Source of the DNA: a virus | Lineage: Duplodnaviria > Heunggongvirae > Uroviricota > Caudoviricetes | Virus record (IMG/VR): IMGVR_UViG_2645727901_000004 | Length of the DNA: 12,268 bases | Direction: 5' to 3' (one strand) | Shown: positions 3,008 to 12,268 of the stretch, in pieces | Layout of the letters: every line of letters begins with the position of its first letter | Numbering within the stretch: position 1 is the stretch's first letter | The notes under the pieces: model-generated | Seen by the model: only the letters and a program-made list of their open reading frames with translations | Databases searched by the model: none | Told to the model about the DNA's origin: nothing | Made by a program: the position numbers and the translations under genes

Positions 3008-3361
3008 TCAGCGGCGACGGTTAACGGCAGGCGGTACGCCCCGCCCAAGCCAGAGATGACAGCTTCCGCCATCATCCGGCGAAATCCGGTCTATCCAGAA
3101 GTTTTCCTCACCGATGGTCAGCGTGTCGCCGCGCCGCAGCTGCCGCACATCATCAGTCCGGACAAACAGGGACGGGCTGGAGCCTTCAACGCGCACGCCC
3201 TGTCCGGCATAGCTGATATTTTCAGGGTCATCAAAAACACCACGTATTACTGCGCCGGACTGCTCACCGGATGTCATGGTGGCTGACGTTCCCATGTACC
3301 CGCGTATCGTTTCATCGGCGCGGGCAATGGCAGCATCGAACAGGTTATCGAAATCAGCCAC
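3008..3361 (-). CDS. FII: Head-tail joining protein gpFII (117 aa), GTG start
   Basis: ORF track 3008..3361, MADFDNLFDAAIARADETIRGYMGTSATMTSGEQSGAVIRG... The start codon read from the sequence is GTG (plus strand CAC at 3359..3361). Starts 11 nt after the FI stop, as in lambda. Confidence 0.9.
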   Translation of the reverse strand: MADFDNLFDAAIARADETIRGYMGTSATMTSGEQSGAVIRGVFDDPENISYAGQGVRVEGSSPSLFVRTDDVRQLRRGDTLTIGEENFWIDRISPDDGGSCHLWLGRGVPPAVNRRR

Positions 3362-3372
3362 AGCGCCTCCCG

Positions 3373-3771
3373 TTATTGCATTCTGGCCAGGCCACGTTCT
3401 GTCATTTCGGCTGCCACACCGGCAGAGACACGAAACGCCGTTCCCGGCAGCACAAATGCCACAGGTTCATCCCGCGTGGCGTGAAGTGCATCAGTATGCA
3501 GCTTCACCAGTGCCACGACCGTGACCAGTTCAGACGTATCCAGAATCACGGTATCCGGCTGCGCTGATCCCACCTCATTTTCATGTCCGGTCAGCACATT
3601 TTCCCGGCTGAGAGGGGTGTCCTGACCGGCAGTTTCATCCGTGTCATCAAGCTCCTCTTCCAGCTCTGCCACACGGAGCGCCAGTTCTTCTTTCGTCCCC
3701 GTCAGGCTGACATCACGGTTCAGTTGTTCACCCAGCGAGCGGAGACGGGCAATCAGTTCATCTTTCGTCAT
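3373..3771 (-). CDS. FI: DNA-packaging/head assembly accessory protein gpFI (132 aa)
   Basis: ORF track 3373..3810. Likely true start is the ATG at 3771..3769 (MTKDELIARLRSLGEQLNRDVSLTGTKEELALRVAELEEELDD...), preceded by GGAGGAG. The 41-nt gap after the E stop equals lambda's. Confidence 0.85.
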   Translation of the reverse strand: MTKDELIARLRSLGEQLNRDVSLTGTKEELALRVAELEEELDDTDETAGQDTPLSRENVLTGHENEVGSAQPDTVILDTSELVTVVALVKLHTDALHATRDEPVAFVLPGTAFRVSAGVAAEMTERGLARMQ

Positions 3772-3792: not shown

Positions 3793-3810
3793 ATGGCCCC
3801 GAAGGGCCAT
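3793..3810 (-). other. Intergenic RNA stem-loop between E and FI: 7-bp stem with a C(UUCG)G tetraloop on the sense (minus) strand
   Basis: Plus strand ATGGCCC-CGAA-GGGCCAT at 3793..3810; sense strand is AUGGCCC-UUCG-GGGCCAU. It sits 2 nt downstream of the E stop codon and immediately upstream of the FI ribosome-binding site. Confidence 0.4.
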
Positions 3811-3812
3811 GA

Positions 3813-4838
3813 TTACGCCAGTTGTACGGACACGAACTCATCAGGGTCAGCCAGCAGCATCAGCGGTGCTGACTGAATCATGGTGAACTCACGCGCCGGA
3901 TCGCCGGTGGTCACCCAGTTTTTCGGGTAACGGGCAGAGGCGTTAATGCCTTCGCGCTGTGCGTCCGCATCCTGAATGCAGCCATAGGTGCGCAGACCGC
4001 GTGCCTGAGTGTTCCCCAGCACCATCGTGTTGTCCGGCAGGAAGTTCTTTTTGACGCCGTTTTCCACGTACTGTCCGGAATACACGACGATGGCCACATC
4101 GCCATACATCCCCTTATAGGACACCGCTTTGCCCAGGTCTTTCACCGCTGTCTCCAGCTCGGAATTAGAGCCACGACGGGTATCCAGCTTCTCCCTGACG
4201 GCTTTGAAGGAACGGAACAGCGCCCAGCCTTTCGGATCGAACACGATGATATTCACCACGCCGCTGGCGTTCAGCGCGTAGGCTTCGATATCGTCGGTCG
4301 GGTCATACGTGGACTTGTCACGCTTGCTCCACTCCGTGCCGCCGGACTGCGTGATGTTATTCTCCTCACTGCGGCCCATATCCACCTCAACCGGATCGAA
4401 GGCTTCACCGGTCATGGTGTATTTGCCCTTAAGCACGGCAGAAACTGCCTGCATCTCTTCGACCTGAGCAATGGCCAGCTCTTCGTCACGCATGTTCTGC
4501 ATGATGATGCGACGGCGGCGGTAAGCCGGGTCCGCCAGATTCTGCGGATCTTCATCCGGCAGGCGACGCAGGGTCATTTGCGGATTCACTTCATGCTTCG
4601 GCTTGACATATCCCGGCGTAAATTCAGAGGTGGAGCCGCCACGGGAACGGATAACCTCACCGGAAACAATCGGCGAAACGTACAGCGCCATGTTTACCAG
4701 TCCCGGAATTTGTGAGAGATAGACTTTCTCCGTGGTGAAGGGATAGCTCTCACGGAAAAAGAGATGCAGAAACAGCGGATCAAACTTAAATTTCTGCTCA
4801 TTTGCCGCCAGCAGCTGGGCGGTTGTGTACATCGACAT
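3813..4838 (-). CDS. E: Major capsid protein gpE (341 aa, HK97-fold)
   Basis: ORF track 3813..4865. Likely true start is the ATG at 4838..4836 (MSMYTTAQLLAANEQKFKFDPLFLHLFFRESYPFTTEKVYLSQIPGLVNMALYVSP...). The 55-nt gap from the D stop equals lambda's. Confidence 0.92.
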   Translation of the reverse strand: MSMYTTAQLLAANEQKFKFDPLFLHLFFRESYPFTTEKVYLSQIPGLVNMALYVSPIVSGEVIRSRGGSTSEFTPGYVKPKHEVNPQMTLRRLPDEDPQNLADPAYRRRRIIMQNMRDEELAIAQVEEMQAVSAVLKGKYTMTGEAFDPVEVDMGRSEENNITQSGGTEWSKRDKSTYDPTDDIEAYALNASGVVNIIVFDPKGWALFRSFKAVREKLDTRRGSNSELETAVKDLGKAVSYKGMYGDVAIVVYSGQYVENGVKKNFLPDNTMVLGNTQARGLRTYGCIQDADAQREGINASARYPKNWVTTGDPAREFTMIQSAPLMLLADPDEFVSVQLA

Positions 4839-5235: not shown

Positions 5236-5841
5236 TTACACTGGTGTGTTCAGCAAATCGTTAACGGCATCAGATGCCGGGTTACCTGCAGCCAGCGGTG
5301 CCGGTGCCCCCTGCATCAGACGATCCAGCGCAGTGTCACTGCGCGCCTGTGCACTCTGTGGTGCTGCGGCCAGAATGCGGCGGGCCGTTTCCACGGTCAT
5401 TCCGGGGGTTTCTGCCAGCACGCGTGCCTGTTCTTCGCGTCCGTGAGCCTCCTCACAGTTGAGGATCCCCATAATGCGGCTGTTTTCTGCCGCAACCGCT
5501 GCGGTGATCTGCGCGTTCACGTCCGGCTGCGCCGCGCTGGCGTTTTCGCCCTCCGTCGCTGACACCACGTCAGTAACATCAGCCTGCGAAGCAGTGGCTG
5601 AAACAGTTGTTGATTGAGTCTCTTTGGTCATTCGCCCTCCTGAGAGACGGGGTTTACGTGCATCCAGTGCATCACGCATGACGGTGATCGCATCGGTGCT
5701 GTTAACAAGTTCATCAGCCAGTCCGGCATCAATGGCCTCCTGACCGCTGTACACTGCAGCCTCTGTATCCAGCACAGCCTGCACGGACAGGCCGGTATAT
5801 GCCGACACCTTCTGCGCAAACATCTGGCGGGTTGCATCCAT
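5236..5841 (-). CDS. nu3: Scaffolding protein gpNu3, translated from an internal in-frame ATG within C (201 codons, same stop as C)
   Basis: In-frame ATG at 5841..5839 (MDATRQMFAQKVSAYTGLSVQ...) is 606 nt from the shared stop, the same geometry as lambda Nu3 inside C. This rests on recalled lambda coordinates. Confidence 0.7.
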   Translation of the reverse strand: MDATRQMFAQKVSAYTGLSVQAVLDTEAAVYSGQEAIDAGLADELVNSTDAITVMRDALDARKPRLSGGRMTKETQSTTVSATASQADVTDVVSATEGENASAAQPDVNAQITAAVAAENSRIMGILNCEEAHGREEQARVLAETPGMTVETARRILAAAPQSAQARSDTALDRLMQGAPAPLAAGNPASDAVNDLLNTPV

Positions 5842-10782: not shown

Positions 10783-10799
10783 TGTTCATTCCACGGACA

Positions 10800-11030
10800 A
10801 AAACAGAGAAAGGAAACGACAGAGGCCAAAAAGCTCGCTTTCAGCACCTGTCGTTTCCTTTCTTTTCAGAGGGTATTTTAAATAAAAACATTAAGTTATG
10901 ACGAAGAAGAACGGAAACGCCTTAAACCGGAAAATTTTCATAAATAGCGAAAACCCGCGAGGTCGCCGCCCCGTAACGGCCCGGATCGCCGGAAAGGACC
11001 CGCAAAATGATAATGGTTATCATTTCAATG
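10800..11030 (-). other. cos: cos packaging site: cosB (Nu1-binding R sites and A/T-rich IHF-like site), cosN (12-nt cohesive-end sequence, plus strand AGGTCGCCGCCC at 10960..10971), and cosQ-side palindrome ATGATAA-TGG-TTATCAT at 11007..11023
   Basis: Sense strand reads ...GTTACGGGGCGGCGACCTCGCGGGTTTTCGCTATTTATGAAAATTTTCCGGTTTAAGGCGTTTCCGTTCTTCTTCGTCATAACTTAATGTTTTT..., which matches the joined lambda right and left ends from memory. It lies immediately upstream of nu1. Confidence 0.85.
10809..10920. repeat. cosB R-site repeats (Nu1 binding): GGAAACGACAG at 10811..10821 and CTGTCGTTTCC at 10848..10858 in inverted orientation, plus a third GGAAACG copy at 10912..10918; A/T-rich putative IHF site between (about 10873..10905)
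   Basis: Direct reading of the GTTTCC/GGAAAC-containing elements. Arrangement corresponds to lambda R1, R2, I1 and R3 as recalled. Confidence 0.6.
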
Positions 11031-11222
11031 TAGTCCGGTTTCTTCCACCATCGCACCGGACAGGCGACTATGAGGGGACAACGCCGCGCTCCGTTAACGC
11101 GGTAAACCCCGGTGTGTATCGTTTTTGATTATCCCCGCACACTCGCGCAGAGGAGTCTCCCGGTCGGGCTGCGGTCTCTGTTAATGCGGGGATACGGCGA
11201 CAATACCGCGCATCAGCAAAAC

Positions 11223-11690
11223 TTATTTCAGGCACTGAGTGCGGATATATTCCTGCGCCACTTCCAGCTGCTTCTGCATCAGCATCAACCGCTCTCTGAG
11301 AGTGAAATAATCCCGTTCAGCGGTGTCTGCCAGTCGGGGGCCGGTTGCATTATCCACGCCGGAGGTGGTGGGGGCTTCACGCACGGTACCGGGGCAGGTG
11401 GCGTTGATCCGCAGGCGCTTACGACCAGCGGCAACGTCAGCGCGCAGAGTTTCATTTTCAGCTCTCGCATCGGCTAATTCCCTCGAGTATCTGGCATCAA
11501 GTGCAGCAACATCACGCTGGCGCTGCTGCATATCAGTAATGGTTGCATTTGCCTGCTCCAGCTCACTGACTTTTTTATCGCGCTGCTCTTTGTAGGTTAT
11601 GGCGTTATCACGGTAATGATTCAGCCCCAGACTAAGCGCACCACAGGCCACCAGCAGGGCAATGATGACCACGCACAGTACGCGGTTCAT
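11223..11690 (-). CDS. Rz: Spanin inner-membrane subunit Rz (i-spanin, 155 aa)
   Basis: ORF track 11223..11690, MNRVLCVVIIALLVACGALSLGLNHYRDNAITYKEQRDKKVSELEQANATITDMQQRQRDVAALDARYSRELADARAENETLRADVAAGRKRL... N-terminal transmembrane segment plus coiled-coil periplasmic domain. Clearly homologous to lambda Rz but more diverged than the head proteins. Confidence 0.9.
   Translation of the reverse strand: MNRVLCVVIIALLVACGALSLGLNHYRDNAITYKEQRDKKVSELEQANATITDMQQRQRDVAALDARYSRELADARAENETLRADVAAGRKRLRINATCPGTVREAPTTSGVDNATGPRLADTAERDYFTLRERLMLMQKQLEVAQEYIRTQCLK
11285..11470 (-). CDS. Rz1: Spanin outer-membrane lipoprotein subunit Rz1 (o-spanin, ~60 aa), embedded in the +1 frame of Rz
   Basis: ORF track 11285..11470, MRELKMKLCALTLPLVVSACGSTPPAPVPCVKPPPPPAWIMQPAPDWQTPLNGIISLSESG. 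It has a lipobox-like LVVSAC and a proline-rich region, very similar to lambda Rz1 as recalled, and lies wholly inside Rz. Confidence 0.85.
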   Translation of the reverse strand: MRELKMKLCALTLPLVVSACGSTPPAPVPCVKPPPPPAWIMQPAPDWQTPLNGIISLSESG

Positions 11691-11691
11691 T

Positions 11692-11790
11692 TCACCACCA
11701 GCGTATCTGACCGATGAAATAACCGGAGGCCATAATCACAAACACCAGCCAGATAAGAATGAACTTCCAGGTGGATAATTTTTCAGCCAT
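11692..11790 (-). CDS. Hypothetical 32-aa single-pass membrane peptide (MAEKLSTWKFILIWLVFVIMASGYFIGQIRWW) immediately upstream of Rz; not in the supplied ORF track
   Basis: Manual translation. ATG at 11790..11788 is preceded by GGGAG at a 9-nt spacing. The TGA stop (11694..11692) is 1 nt from the Rz ATG. The hydrophobic core FILIWLVFVIMASGYFIG is about one transmembrane helix. No known homolog recalled. Confidence 0.3.
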   Translation of the reverse strand: MAEKLSTWKFILIWLVFVIMASGYFIGQIRWW

Positions 11791-11865
11791 CACTCGAATC
11801 TCCCGAATCAGTTTGCTAAAATCAAACACACTTTCTCCTTTGACTTTTCCGGAGTCAGGAAACAC

Positions 11866-11899
11866 AAAACCCCGCTTGGTGCCAACAAACGGGGTTTTT
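11866..11899. terminator. Bidirectional rho-independent-terminator-like hairpin in the endolysin-Rz linker (AAAACCCCG...CGGGGTTTT with flanking T/A runs on both strands)
   Basis: Plus strand AAAACCCCG-CTTGGTGCCAACAAA-CGGGGTTTTT followed by ACTTTTATT. On the sense (minus) strand the stem is followed by UUUUGUGUUU. Confidence 0.45.
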
Positions 11900-11988
11900 A
11901 CTTTTATTCACTTACGTTTCGCCAGTTCGCAGGATTTCATGTTATCCGCCCGCGTGGCCATGCTTTATTTTTCAGCAAAATATTCTGC

Positions 11989-12268
11989 TTATCTGTCGAT
12001 ACCCCAGCACGCCAGCGCGCTCTCCTGGTCACGACGGGATACCTGACCGTAGCAGTTGTTTGAACGAATACGGCAGTCTCTGCCACCGTCCTTAATCCAC
12101 CAGCGAATCGCCTCACACGCTCCCCTGCGATCACCTGCATTAATTCGTTTATAAAACGTCGACGGGAAACACTTACCGGGACCAATGTTGTACGGACAGA
12201 ATGACGCGATCCCCGCTTTCTGGGGTTCGCTCAATGGCACTTTGATGTTTTTCTCCACCCACGCCAGC
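11989..12268 (-). CDS. R: Endolysin, lysozyme type (T4-lysozyme-like muramidase), C-terminal ~92 codons; 5' end lies beyond the window
   Basis: ORF open to the window edge: ...LAWVEKNIKVPLSEPQKAGIASFCPYNIGPGKCFPSTFYKRINAGDRRGACEAIRWWIKDGGRDCRIRSNNCYGQVSRRDQESALACWGIDR. This closely matches, from memory, the R lysozyme of Stx-type lambdoid phages such as 933W, and is not lambda's transglycosylase R. Confidence 0.85.
   Translation of the reverse strand, partial: LAWVEKNIKVPLSEPQKAGIASFCPYNIGPGKCFPSTFYKRINAGDRRGACEAIRWWIKDGGRDCRIRSNNCYGQVSRRDQESALACWGIDR

Follow-up and report, generated by a model that had tools for sequence, protein, structure and literature searches.

What lies between the lysozyme gene R and the spanin gene Rz of this phage, and what could it do there? 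The window analysed here is the whole stretch of 12,268 nucleotides from a Caudoviricetes virus (IMG/VR record IMGVR_UViG_2645727901_000004), and 298 nt of it separate the R stop from the Rz start. No gene occupies this place in lambda-type prophages, as the initial annotation had noted for lambda itself, and in the K-12 prophages DLP12 and Qin the R and Rz genes overlap by 4 nt. The reading preferred here, with a probability of about 0.5 and drawn from sequence comparison, is that positions 11692–11908 form a portable membrane-peptide cassette under antisense control (type I TA-like), which would also couple the translation of Rz.

The gene between R and Rz

The genes and translation signals of this region are as follows.

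11989–12268, minus strand: 3′ part of the R lysozyme gene (context), running off the window; PF00959, E 2.6e-12; ‘lysozyme’ in PGAP
11692–11829, minus strand: small membrane-peptide gene, long conserved form, MFDFSKLIREIRVMAEKLSTWKFILIWLVFVIMASGYFIGQIRWW; GTG start, 45 codons plus TGA
11692–11790, minus strand: 32-codon ORF of the initial annotation, MAEKLSTWKFILIWLVFVIMASGYFIGQIRWW; ATG 11790–11788, TGA 11694–11692
11835–11840, minus strand: Shine–Dalgarno (SD) sequence AAGGAG, 5 nt upstream of GTG 11829
11800–11804, minus strand: internal SD-like GGGAG (codons R9–E10), 9 nt upstream of ATG 11790
11688–11699, minus strand: junction GGTGGTGA-A-ATG, SD-like over its Trp-Trp-stop codons, with the Rz start 1 nt on
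11223–11690, minus strand: Rz, the i-spanin (context); PF03245, E 8e-49
11285–11470, minus strand: Rz1, embedded in Rz; PF06085, E 8e-21

The ORF upstream of Rz is present on the minus strand as initially described, its stop separated from the Rz ATG (11690) by the single base 11691. However, its length of 32 codons does not hold, because the open frame continues upstream of the ATG and the conserved gene comprises 45 codons from GTG 11829. Nor is the gene unannotated, since it is called by PGAP in some genomes and the family is held in PHROGs. The PHROG 6632 profile matches the product end to end (residues 1–45 on positions 1–45 of 45, E 1.2e-29), and an identical 45-aa CDS (WP_000459345.1, ‘hypothetical protein’) is annotated by PGAP in E. 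coli O55:H7 DEC5D and also in strain 98198. Both entries are the same protein as that of the window, and in neither source is anything said of function, RNA context or coupling to Rz. Records differ in their annotation, with a hypothetical protein listed under the match in only 5 of 17 full-length rows, while the H-19B record and most PGAP rows show the lysozyme and the lysis protein alone. A 361-bp core is 100% identical to that of E. coli O55:H7 DEC5D, with differing flanks, and the best 2-kb matches of the window are Stx1a-type prophages, 95–97% identical. A full-text literature search with the peptide sequence and WP accession numbers returned no match, and nothing specific was found in the literature on small ORFs at R/Rz, antisense RNA or sRNA.

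The small frame between lysozyme and Rz is almost certainly a real conserved gene, judging from its pattern of substitution. Conservation of the frame had been named as one way to check the ORF, and in relatives the frame is kept with synonymous-biased change and with neither frameshifts nor stops. Across 10 orthologs from different Enterobacterales genera (56–87% identical), pN/pS is 0.31 in the ORF frame vs. 0.49–1.84 in the other five frames, dN/dS relative to the window is 0.09–0.26, and indels or stops are absent. Synonymous sites are saturated in codons 15–45 (pS 0.80), with a pN of 0.25 for the peptide core. All 65–66 of the 65–66 copies collected through the upstream hairpin, i.e., independently of the ORF, are intact and 0 are disrupted. 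A search of 1.84e9 proteins yielded 40 clusters at 50% identity. The gene is conserved across Enterobacterales and in an Azoarcus MAG; the N-terminal 13 aa are kept in distant members, and the N-terminal motif is conserved to roughly 35–45% identity.

The start of translation deserves separate treatment. The plausible ribosome-binding site of the initial annotation exists, in that GGGAG lies 9 nt before ATG 11790, but the conserved start is GTG 11829 with its strong SD, and an AAGGAG/AGGGAG/ACGAGG equivalent precedes the GTG/TTG/ATG start in all orthologs. The internal ATG 11790 with its own SD is possibly a second start giving a second product. Its residue, Met14, is invariant in two alignments (A1/A2), the E10 codon is GAG in 16/18 family-1 cassettes (GAA in 1/18, GGG in 1/18), codons 9 and 10 do not vary at their third positions, and one Serratia locus (L016) encodes the short form only.

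Comparative sequence analysis shows the product to be a 45-residue bitopic inner-membrane peptide under purifying selection, with a predicted N-in/C-out topology. The single hydrophobic helix initially proposed is borne out by hydropathy (residues 24–42, mean Kyte–Doolittle 2.13, with a net charge of +2 on the N-side) and by the AlphaFold2 model of the 45-aa form, which shows helices at residues 4–17 and 20–44 with a pLDDT of 85.8. The predicted layout is a cytoplasmic amphipathic helix (~4–17), a break at S/P19, a TM helix (~20–44) and an ...IRWW end. No similarity to a known type I toxin, holin or defence protein was found in Pfam, NCBIfam or PADLOC, and the holin families of Pfam and NCBIfam gave no match. 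An Epiglycanin_C match (E 0.12) was set aside as reflecting TM composition only, and YmfR of the K-12 e14 prophage, similarly placed before baseplate genes, was rejected as a homolog, being an unrelated 60-aa protein with two TM segments.

Translational coupling of the ORF to Rz, as initially suggested, is plausible because phages of E. coli, Citrobacter and Salmonella, like the lambdoid sample, have conserved the stop-N-ATG junction. Wherever an Rz start is recognised in a lambdoid architecture, the form ...IRWW-stop-N-ATG(Rz) is present, and it is also seen in Citrobacter and Salmonella; in most contexts the downstream ATG lies 1–7 nt from the stop. The K-12 Qin and DLP12 prophages were considered as a route to Ribo-seq data and discarded, as both lack the cassette.

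The RNA leader and the candidate antisense RNA

Upstream of and within the first codons, four further elements were located or predicted.

11866–11898, strand not assigned: cassette hairpin with the shape of a bidirectional intrinsic terminator, a GC-rich stem between an A-tract and a T-tract (terminator scan)
11834–11862, minus strand: SD-occluding stem-loop, in which UUUCCU/GACU pairs with AGUC/AGGAGA in the sense RNA (MFE fold)
11814–11822, plus strand: predicted antisense promoter, extended −10 TGcTAAAAT, opposite codons 3–6 (GAT TTT AGC AAA)
11829–11908, plus strand: predicted cis-antisense RNA of ~75–80 nt, placed by the geometry of promoter motif and terminator

A conserved RNA leader around the translation start is very likely on comparative grounds. 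Compensatory changes in the cassette hairpin were detected by RNAalifold, and in the covariance-model (CM) alignment 99.6% of its cells are paired and 5/9 pairs change on both sides. The SD stem (helix 1) has 84% of cells paired with 4/5 pairs changed on both sides, and an equivalent 5–7 bp stem occurs at the same place in other cassettes with different sequences (CCTTG/CAAGG, CGTTA/TAACG, TCCTAT/ATAGGA, CCTTCTG/CAGAAGG). Taken jointly, hairpin and SD stem show 94.3% of cells paired and double changes in 9/14 pairs; 0/500 shuffles were as good, and slid controls reached 25–67%. The spacing from hairpin to ORF start is fixed at 32–39 nt in 19/21 cassettes, namely those in which a perfect stem was located. 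At two loci (L111 and L112) the cassette hairpin is present in addition to the upstream gene's own terminator. The module of hairpin, SD stem and antisense −10 also precedes unrelated family-2 peptides, and both families end in TGG-TGG-stop beside the following gene.

On the opposite strand, TAnnnT is found at the same register in 21/21 cassettes (17 with TG) vs. 4% expected. The pattern T-T-G-n-T-A-A-n-A-T is invariant in alignment A3, and in Azoarcus the antisense −10 persists although encoded residues have changed (D>N, S>I). The family-2 peptides, although unrelated, have TATACT/TACAAT in this position. Of the N-terminal codons, 6/12 show no variation at the third position, vs. 0/27 core codons (Fisher 2.8e-4). 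The −35 region of this candidate promoter is poor (TCGAAT/TCGCAA). The RNA predicted from it folds with an MFE of −23.2 kcal/mol (z −3.3), and the covariance model (R1) finds one such element per cassette at 38–89 bits. Based on these sequence features, a cis-antisense RNA that starts opposite the GTG, covers the SD and ends at the hairpin and its U-tract is somewhat favoured. No Rfam family matched the element, nor did any reach its gathering score in the whole window, and the Rfam models of AgvB, AsxR, Esr41, STnc100 and Sok have no match there. An AgvB/AsxR-type anti-sRNA on the CA-rich antisense strand was rejected, since those genes occupy the PR′ moron site, their Rfam models miss the window and no matching sequence is present in the supplement of PMC4104026.

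The hairpin may mainly serve the sense RNA, because the sense strand carries T6 tracts (L102, L107, L112) and the G–U pairs of its inner stem are valid on that strand only; in the sense direction it is at least an equally good terminator. As to the strand that the hairpins serve, G–U pairs give mixed evidence, with 15 to 5 for antisense in the CM-fitted alignment, which is itself biased toward antisense. At the Serratia locus with the short ORF, hairpin and antisense motif are absent, so that at least one lineage can do without the module. The window promoter scan shows no sense sigma70-like promoter on the minus strand between R and the ORF. A candidate between hairpin and ORF (−35 CCTTGA, −10 GTGATT) was discarded for its poor −10 and its absence from the scan.

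Genomic settings and competing explanations

The cassette accompanies four unrelated holin/endolysin types, in E. coli, Citrobacter, Edwardsiella and Salmonella. The family also occupies a baseplate V/W-like slot in Yersinia, Pantoea and Serratia, and other members lie after tail-fibre genes, in tail modules or alone in TA-rich cargo islands. From this distribution, the family is not lysis-specific, and the initial suggestion of a small lysis modulator is weakened, as close members sit in baseplate, tail-fibre and TA settings.

The alternative that survives best, an unlikely one, is nevertheless a lysis-specific accessory, i.e., an antiholin-like or spanin-associated factor that would tune lysis timing or aid the insertion and function of Rz and be co-translated with it. 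Its position between endolysin and Rz in E. coli, Citrobacter, Edwardsiella and Salmonella phages is consistent with such a role, as are the 1-nt stop–start wherever an Rz start is recognised in the lambdoid sample, the predicted N-in/C-out topology shared with the i-spanin, and the possible dual start (GTG 11829/ATG 11790), which recalls holin/antiholin pairs. In P2, too, a gene for a membrane protein (lysA) separates the endolysin gene from the spanin genes. However, members in baseplate and tail modules are 56–87% identical, a distant one (P0055) is found in cargo islands without lysis genes, and the four unrelated types of holins and endolysins leave no constant partner but Rz. Given these settings, a lysis-specific partner is unlikely, though the peptide may still affect lysis. 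The peptide has one TM helix, its ...IRWW C-terminus bears no holin-like charged tail, no Pfam holin family matches, and the holin of the cassette, of class II, is encoded by a gene of its own. Only ~3 residues (RWW) follow the TM helix, giving no periplasmic domain, there is no lipobox, and Rz/Rz1 are separate downstream genes. Furthermore, Sakai- and EPEC-type prophages carry other, unrelated small TM peptides in the same R–Rz slot.

Somewhat less probable is a moron expressed in the lysogen, which would act at the inner membrane in superinfection exclusion or anti-phage defence, as the phage moron HK97 gp15 does. Presence/absence polymorphism at the R–Rz junction and the alternative TM peptides in the slot fit this explanation, being a diversity typical of conflict genes, and so do the TA/defence-type cargo neighbours at several loci (L102, L108–L110). 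The stand-alone L108 copies each follow a strong sigma70-like promoter (TTTACA-17-TATCAT). Against it, lysogen expression is unlikely in the lambdoid setting, because the window and its lambdoid relatives have no sense promoter and carry a terminator directly upstream. In addition, no PADLOC model matches, and the conserved, predicted antisense promoter and the SD-occluding stem suggest repression rather than constitutive expression. Relative to the moron concept (PMC4104026), the cassette is likewise an extra small membrane-protein gene, variably present between conserved late genes and with its own transcription signal; however, that signal is an upstream terminator plus a predicted antisense promoter, whereas a moron has a sense promoter and a downstream terminator. 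The cassette has an upstream hairpin only, and its 3′ end abuts the next gene.

Improbable to much the same degree, if marginally more so, is the idea that selection acts on the RNA element as cargo, i.e., on a gene for a small regulatory RNA with its promoter and terminator. The peptide would then be mainly a translated bridge by which ribosomes still reach the downstream gene once the element has entered an operon. The presence of one module before at least two unrelated peptide families ending in TGG-TGG-stop, together with the SD-like GGTGGTGA at the 3′ end so close to the next ATG in most contexts, would be in keeping with a bridge. However, purifying selection acts at the amino-acid level on the core, where synonymous sites are saturated, and the N-terminal motif persists to low identity; Serratia has the peptide without the RNA element, and the stand-alone L108 copies have no abutting downstream gene. 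Finally, a functionless chance ORF in a mosaic linker, also raised initially and favoured by short length and by absence from many record annotations, is refuted, with a negligible residual probability, because purifying selection is frame-specific and every hairpin-anchored copy is intact, with start codon and SD conserved in a family that spans Enterobacterales and the Azoarcus MAG.

Proposed mode of action and relation to known systems

For the antisense-controlled cassette, the following mode of action can be envisaged. In lysogenic cells, three elements would jointly hold the peptide off, namely the terminator, the antisense RNA and the SD-occluding stem. After induction, Q-antiterminated late transcription would pass the hairpin and outrun the antisense RNA, and the peptide would then be translated with GTG 11829 as its start and possibly with the internal ATG 11790 as another. 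Ribosomes ending at the SD-like UGG-UGG-UGA would move to the Rz AUG 1 nt on, a handover that would retain the coupling given by R in lambda. The type I TA-like layout, i.e., a small hydrophobic peptide with an antisense RNA, leads to the best guess that the peptide is membrane-active and that its late expression is harmless or helpful to lysis. A toxin-like activity proper is doubtful.

In classical type I systems the toxin has its own promoter. With 45 aa (<60 aa) and a helix at residues 20–44, the peptide has the size and TM character of type I toxins, and in the window it has no promoter of its own. The cassette shares with hok/sok-type systems a small one-helix hydrophobic peptide, an SD-hiding leader and a prophage location. 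However, its short cis-antisense RNA, with its own promoter and terminator and lying over the initiation region, is predicted only, its peptide has no sequence similarity to Hok or another known toxin, and the lambdoid cassette lies in the late operon without a toxin promoter and with its 3′ end fused to the next start. HokW of hokW–sokW, a type I TA system of the Stx2 phage Sp5, was reported to assist phage-mediated lysis (PMC8621323).

The layout predicted for the antisense RNA is similar to that of P22 sar and lambda OOP, with no sequence or Rfam relationship. These are phage cis-antisense RNAs of ~70–80 nt with an intrinsic terminator that lie over a ribosome-binding site or gene end, their targets being ant and cII, whereas the cassette has its predicted promoter within the opening codons of the ORF that would be targeted. 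A further comparison is offered by lambda S107/S105, the dual-start holin/antiholin, where both in-frame starts have an SD of their own and a stem forms in the RNA around the initiation site. In the window, too, the gene lies in a lysis cassette, encodes a small membrane protein and has two in-frame SD-preceded starts (the second a possible one) and an initiation stem. However, its two forms would differ by 13 residues, i.e., the whole amphipathic helix, rather than by 2, and its peptide has a single TM helix, no charged tail and no holin match, in a family that also occurs outside lysis cassettes.

More tentatively, we propose as a joint claim an undescribed portable class, the ‘IRWW-peptide cassettes’, in which a bidirectional terminator, an SD-occluding stem, a dual-start gene for a single-pass membrane peptide and a Trp-Trp-stop end would be combined. 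In such cassettes the first codons would double as the promoter of the cis-antisense RNA and the end as the ribosome-binding site of the downstream gene, at least two unrelated peptide families would share the chassis, and insertion into late operons (R/Rz, baseplate V/W) would occur without polarity. As part of the same tentative proposal, the class would be a new type I TA-like family whose peptide acts on the inner membrane late in infection.

If this is true, a new antisense-controlled membrane-peptide family would join the few type I-like modules known from Enterobacterales, and the cassette would show how small genes can be inserted without polarity into tightly coupled phage operons via a self-supplied ribosome-binding end. 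The R–Rz gap would then be a hot spot for small membrane peptides with a possible influence on when lysis occurs and, with it, on the release of toxin and phage. The arrangement occurs in 871 of the 5,426 complete E. coli genomes (~16%), and many Stx1-, Stx2a- and Stx2c-converting phages carry it in the lysis region that releases Shiga toxin.

The small ORF, its reading frame and its conservation

The initial annotation described a 32-codon membrane-peptide ORF directly before Rz, and its coordinates, hydrophobic helix, RBS-like GGGAG (11804-11800) and 1-nt junction are all real, as are the flanking genes that it assumed. One base separates the ORF stop from the Rz ATG.

Features of the locus
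ATG 11790 to TGA 11694-11692, minus strand: short ORF, encoding MAEKLSTWKFILIWLVFVIMASGYFIGQIRWW
ATG 11690, minus strand: Rz, 155 aa (Pfam Phage_lysis/Rz, E 8e-49)
11285-11470, minus strand: Rz1, embedded in Rz (PF06085)
Ending at 11989, minus strand: upstream gene, a phage lysozyme fragment (PF00959)
11866-11898: GC-rich hairpin with A-tract and T-tract flanks, upstream of the ORF and travelling with it
11814-11822, plus strand: extended -10 promoter motif TGnTAAAAT, opposite frozen codons of the ORF

However, the gene is neither unannotated nor only 32 codons long. Across 361 bp that include the ORF, the sequence is 100% identical to that of a prophage in E. coli O55:H7 DEC5D, in which PGAP annotates, in the same frame, a 45-aa hypothetical protein (WP_000459345.1) starting at GTG 11829; the window flanks are unlike DEC5D, the nearest 2-kb matches being Stx1a-type prophages (95-97% identity). 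This GTG follows a strong SD, AAGGAG, with a 5-nt spacer, and the 45-aa form aligns with PHROG 6632 over its full length (E 1.2e-29), with no match in Pfam, NCBIfam or PADLOC. Databases already list the family, with no function assigned, and annotate it unevenly: the record for H-19B and a majority of RefSeq rows show only the lysozyme and lysis protein. Of 5,426 complete E. coli genomes, 871 have this arrangement, as do many Stx-converting phages.

Searching 1.84 billion representatives with a profile recovered 40 clusters, and relatives occur in E. albertii, E. fergusonii, Salmonella, Citrobacter, Trabulsiella, Edwardsiella, Yersinia, Izhakiella, Sodalis, Brenneria, Pantoea, Symbiopectobacterium, Serratia and an Azoarcus MAG. 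Distant members keep the N-terminal motif x-D-x-S-K-L-I-R-E-L-R-x-M-x-E-K-L-x-x-W-K-F, and therefore the 45-codon form is the conserved gene. Among ten orthologs of exactly 45 codons each, which showed no indels or stops, substitution was biased to synonymous sites in the annotated frame (pS 0.656, pN 0.206, ratio 0.31) compared with the five other frames (ratios 0.49-1.84), with dN/dS of 0.09-0.26 relative to the window. To avoid ascertainment through the protein, 112 lambdoid loci were fetched via the upstream hairpin alone; 65 carry the family ORF and one more a D3N variant, every copy being intact. The frameshifts or stops that would mark a chance ORF were thus not found in these relatives, and that reading was rejected.

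Three related database proteins (P0013, P0017, P0027) have altered C-termini, so occasional decay occurs outside the sampled set. In another, P0025 from E. coli, WEVHSYLAGVCDYG replaces WKFILIWLVFVIMA before the normal frame resumes, which suggests either a sequencing error or two frameshifts that compensate each other.

Purifying selection and the predicted structure support a real small membrane peptide: AlphaFold2 gives an amphipathic helix at residues 4-17, a break and a helix at 20-44 (pLDDT 85.8), and hydropathy and charge suggest an N-in/C-out topology. A second, 32-aa product from Met14 (ATG 11790) is plausible, because Met14 is almost invariant, an SD-like run precedes it (with a Glu codon that is GAG in 16 of 18 cassettes and GAA and GGG in one each) and Serratia encodes the short form alone.

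The RNA leader and the antisense promoter motif

The hairpin ends 32-39 nt before the start codon in 19 of 21 cassettes, those with a locatable perfect stem, and shows compensatory changes. In two relatives (L111, L112) a separate terminator of the upstream gene precedes it, so the hairpin is part of the cassette. Next to the SD, or overlapping it, is a second short stem, in versions such as CCTTG/CAAGG, CGTTA/TAACG, TCCTAT/ATAGGA and CCTTCTG/CAGAAGG; the window version pairs UUUCCU with the SD, AGGAGA. With a covariance model of the unit, each cassette yielded a single element (38-89 bits) and the K-12 prophages yielded none. In its alignment, 94.3% of cells were paired, with both-side changes in 9 of 14 pairs, figures that are somewhat inflated since the alignment was fitted to the model; none of 500 shuffles reached these values, and slid controls were 25-67% paired.

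Synonymous divergence is saturated in codons 15-45 (pS 0.80) versus 0.33 in codons 2-13, and the third position is invariant in 6 of 12 codons at the N-terminus versus 0 of 27 degenerate codons of the core (Fisher 2.8e-4). The frozen GAT-TTT-AGC-AAA reads TTTGCTAAAATC on the opposite strand, where T-12, A-11, T-7 and the TG of the promoter motif are invariant and only position -9 varies. The Azoarcus copy carries D to N and S to I substitutions that alter bases only at non-consensus promoter positions, and unrelated peptides on the same module (family 2) have TATACT or TACAAT in the same register, suggesting a constraint on nucleotides rather than amino acids. In 21 of 21 cassettes, a TAnnnT places its -7 T opposite ORF nt 5-11, versus 4% expected. 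Initiation at this promoter would give a transcript that begins across from the start codon, crosses the SD and ends at the hairpin. This predicted antisense RNA of ~75-80 nt (11829 to about 11908, plus strand; MFE -23.2 kcal/mol, z -3.3) matched no Rfam family, and no description of it was found in the literature.

The junction with Rz and the R-Rz gap

In every lambdoid architecture whose Rz start was recognised (+174, +211/212 or +518 nt after the hairpin), two different peptide families end in IRWW-stop 1 nt before the Rz ATG. Read from sequence, the Trp-Trp-stop codons, GGUGGUGA, match the anti-SD at 7 of 8 positions. Lambda-type phages couple Rz to R, and here the small ORF occupies that place; the coupling proposed earlier is probable from the geometry of this constant junction. 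In K-12 DLP12 and Qin, as in lambda, R and Rz overlap by 4 nt with no such gene between them, and the element therefore behaves as an insertion.

The terminal Trp-Trp-stop (TGG TGG TGA/TAG; window 11692-11700, minus strand) is nearly universal and doubles as an SD-like sequence ahead of the following gene; with only one codon for Trp, selection on the protein and selection on the RNA are inseparable here. Lambdoid prophages have a hot spot for alternative small TM-peptide ORFs in the gap between R and Rz. Sakai-type prophages (L097 1889-2146, O157:H7 RIMD 0509939) have a 7-codon remnant followed by a 37-aa MKGIEVETPASLDLTRAAAFAIRIVAIAVLVWAIRWW, and EPEC E2348/69 (L098 1590-2153) has a row of four small TM ORFs, the first a homolog of the window peptide without PGAP annotation (LIDFSKLIRELRLMISQLPNWKF...AIKG). 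The alternative peptides of both loci also end in IRWW-stop 1 nt before Rz.

Genomic context and interpretation

There is good support for a real, mobile membrane-peptide gene of 45 codons, with two conserved stems in its RNA leader and a conserved promoter-like motif on the opposite strand. The predicted antisense RNA, the terminator and the SD-occluding stem may keep the peptide silent until antiterminated late transcription arrives, after which ribosomes would couple from the small ORF into Rz. This layout recalls type I toxin-antitoxin modules, one of which, of Hok type and in an Stx phage, was reported to aid lysis (PMC8621323). However, the window copy lacks its own sense promoter, its hairpin is equally good as a sense terminator, and its peptide, of only putative toxicity, is not homologous to any known toxin. 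The architecture, both regulatory and as a portable cassette, appears undescribed.

A lysis-specific accessory protein, one of the possibilities first raised, is unlikely. Although the family is found before Rz in four lysis cassettes (those of E. coli, Citrobacter, Edwardsiella and a P22-like Salmonella phage), their holin/endolysin types are unrelated; members are also flanked by baseplate V-/W-like genes in Yersinia (87% identical), Pantoea and Serratia, lie 3' of tail genes in Izhakiella, Sodalis, Brenneria and L112, and stand alone among ParE, YafQ/RelB, HicAB and PrlF/YhaV modules. The family is not tied to lysis; of the initial interpretation, the membrane peptide and its probable Rz coupling stand, and lysis specificity falls with the 32-codon length and the unannotated status. 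A lysogen-expressed exclusion or defence moron, considered beside the stand-alone members and the missing sense promoter, is more doubtful still. An RNA element as cargo, with the peptide mainly a coupling bridge, has the conserved leader on its side and frame-specific selection against it, and is the least likely by a little.

In L108, another relative, a ~370-nt leader occurs in three copies (3100-3470, 3805-4175 and about 5330-5700), each before a small IRWW-peptide ORF, one of family 1 (that of the window peptide) and two of family 2. Both fully read copies, the third being read over its last ~170 nt only, contain a strong promoter-like TTTACA-17-TATCAT and a first terminator-like hairpin followed about 170 nt on by the cassette hairpin. 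ParE, YafQ/RelB and other TA modules lie between the copies on the opposite strand, with terminase genes just downstream; the leader may be a late-promoter/antitermination leader or a complete mobile unit. L112 has tandem hairpin-plus-peptide cassettes (3184-3363 and 3501-3647) 3' of a gpJ-like tail gene, and its first peptide (59 aa, C-terminus AAIRWW-stop) belongs to neither family. In a Sodalis locus (L011 3134-3271) the family ORF is followed, through TAG-C-ATG, by a second 45-aa TM peptide, MLIILGTTSREGADAAQRILSICIGISLLIASAGLTIAAILYAIG; therefore small-TM-peptide arrays are not confined to E. coli prophages.

Outside the window, four relatives (L002 1885-2442, L003, L004, L098) have an extra gene between S (holin) and R (lysozyme), whose product is in some a YdfR-family protein and in others a hypothetical protein of 185 aa. 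In the window, about 440 bp (10783-11222) separate the Rz end from a lambda-like Nu1 gene (10782-10237), an interval that in lambda is about 2 kb, bor included, and that holds DUF1398 and ynfO genes in DEC5D-like relatives.
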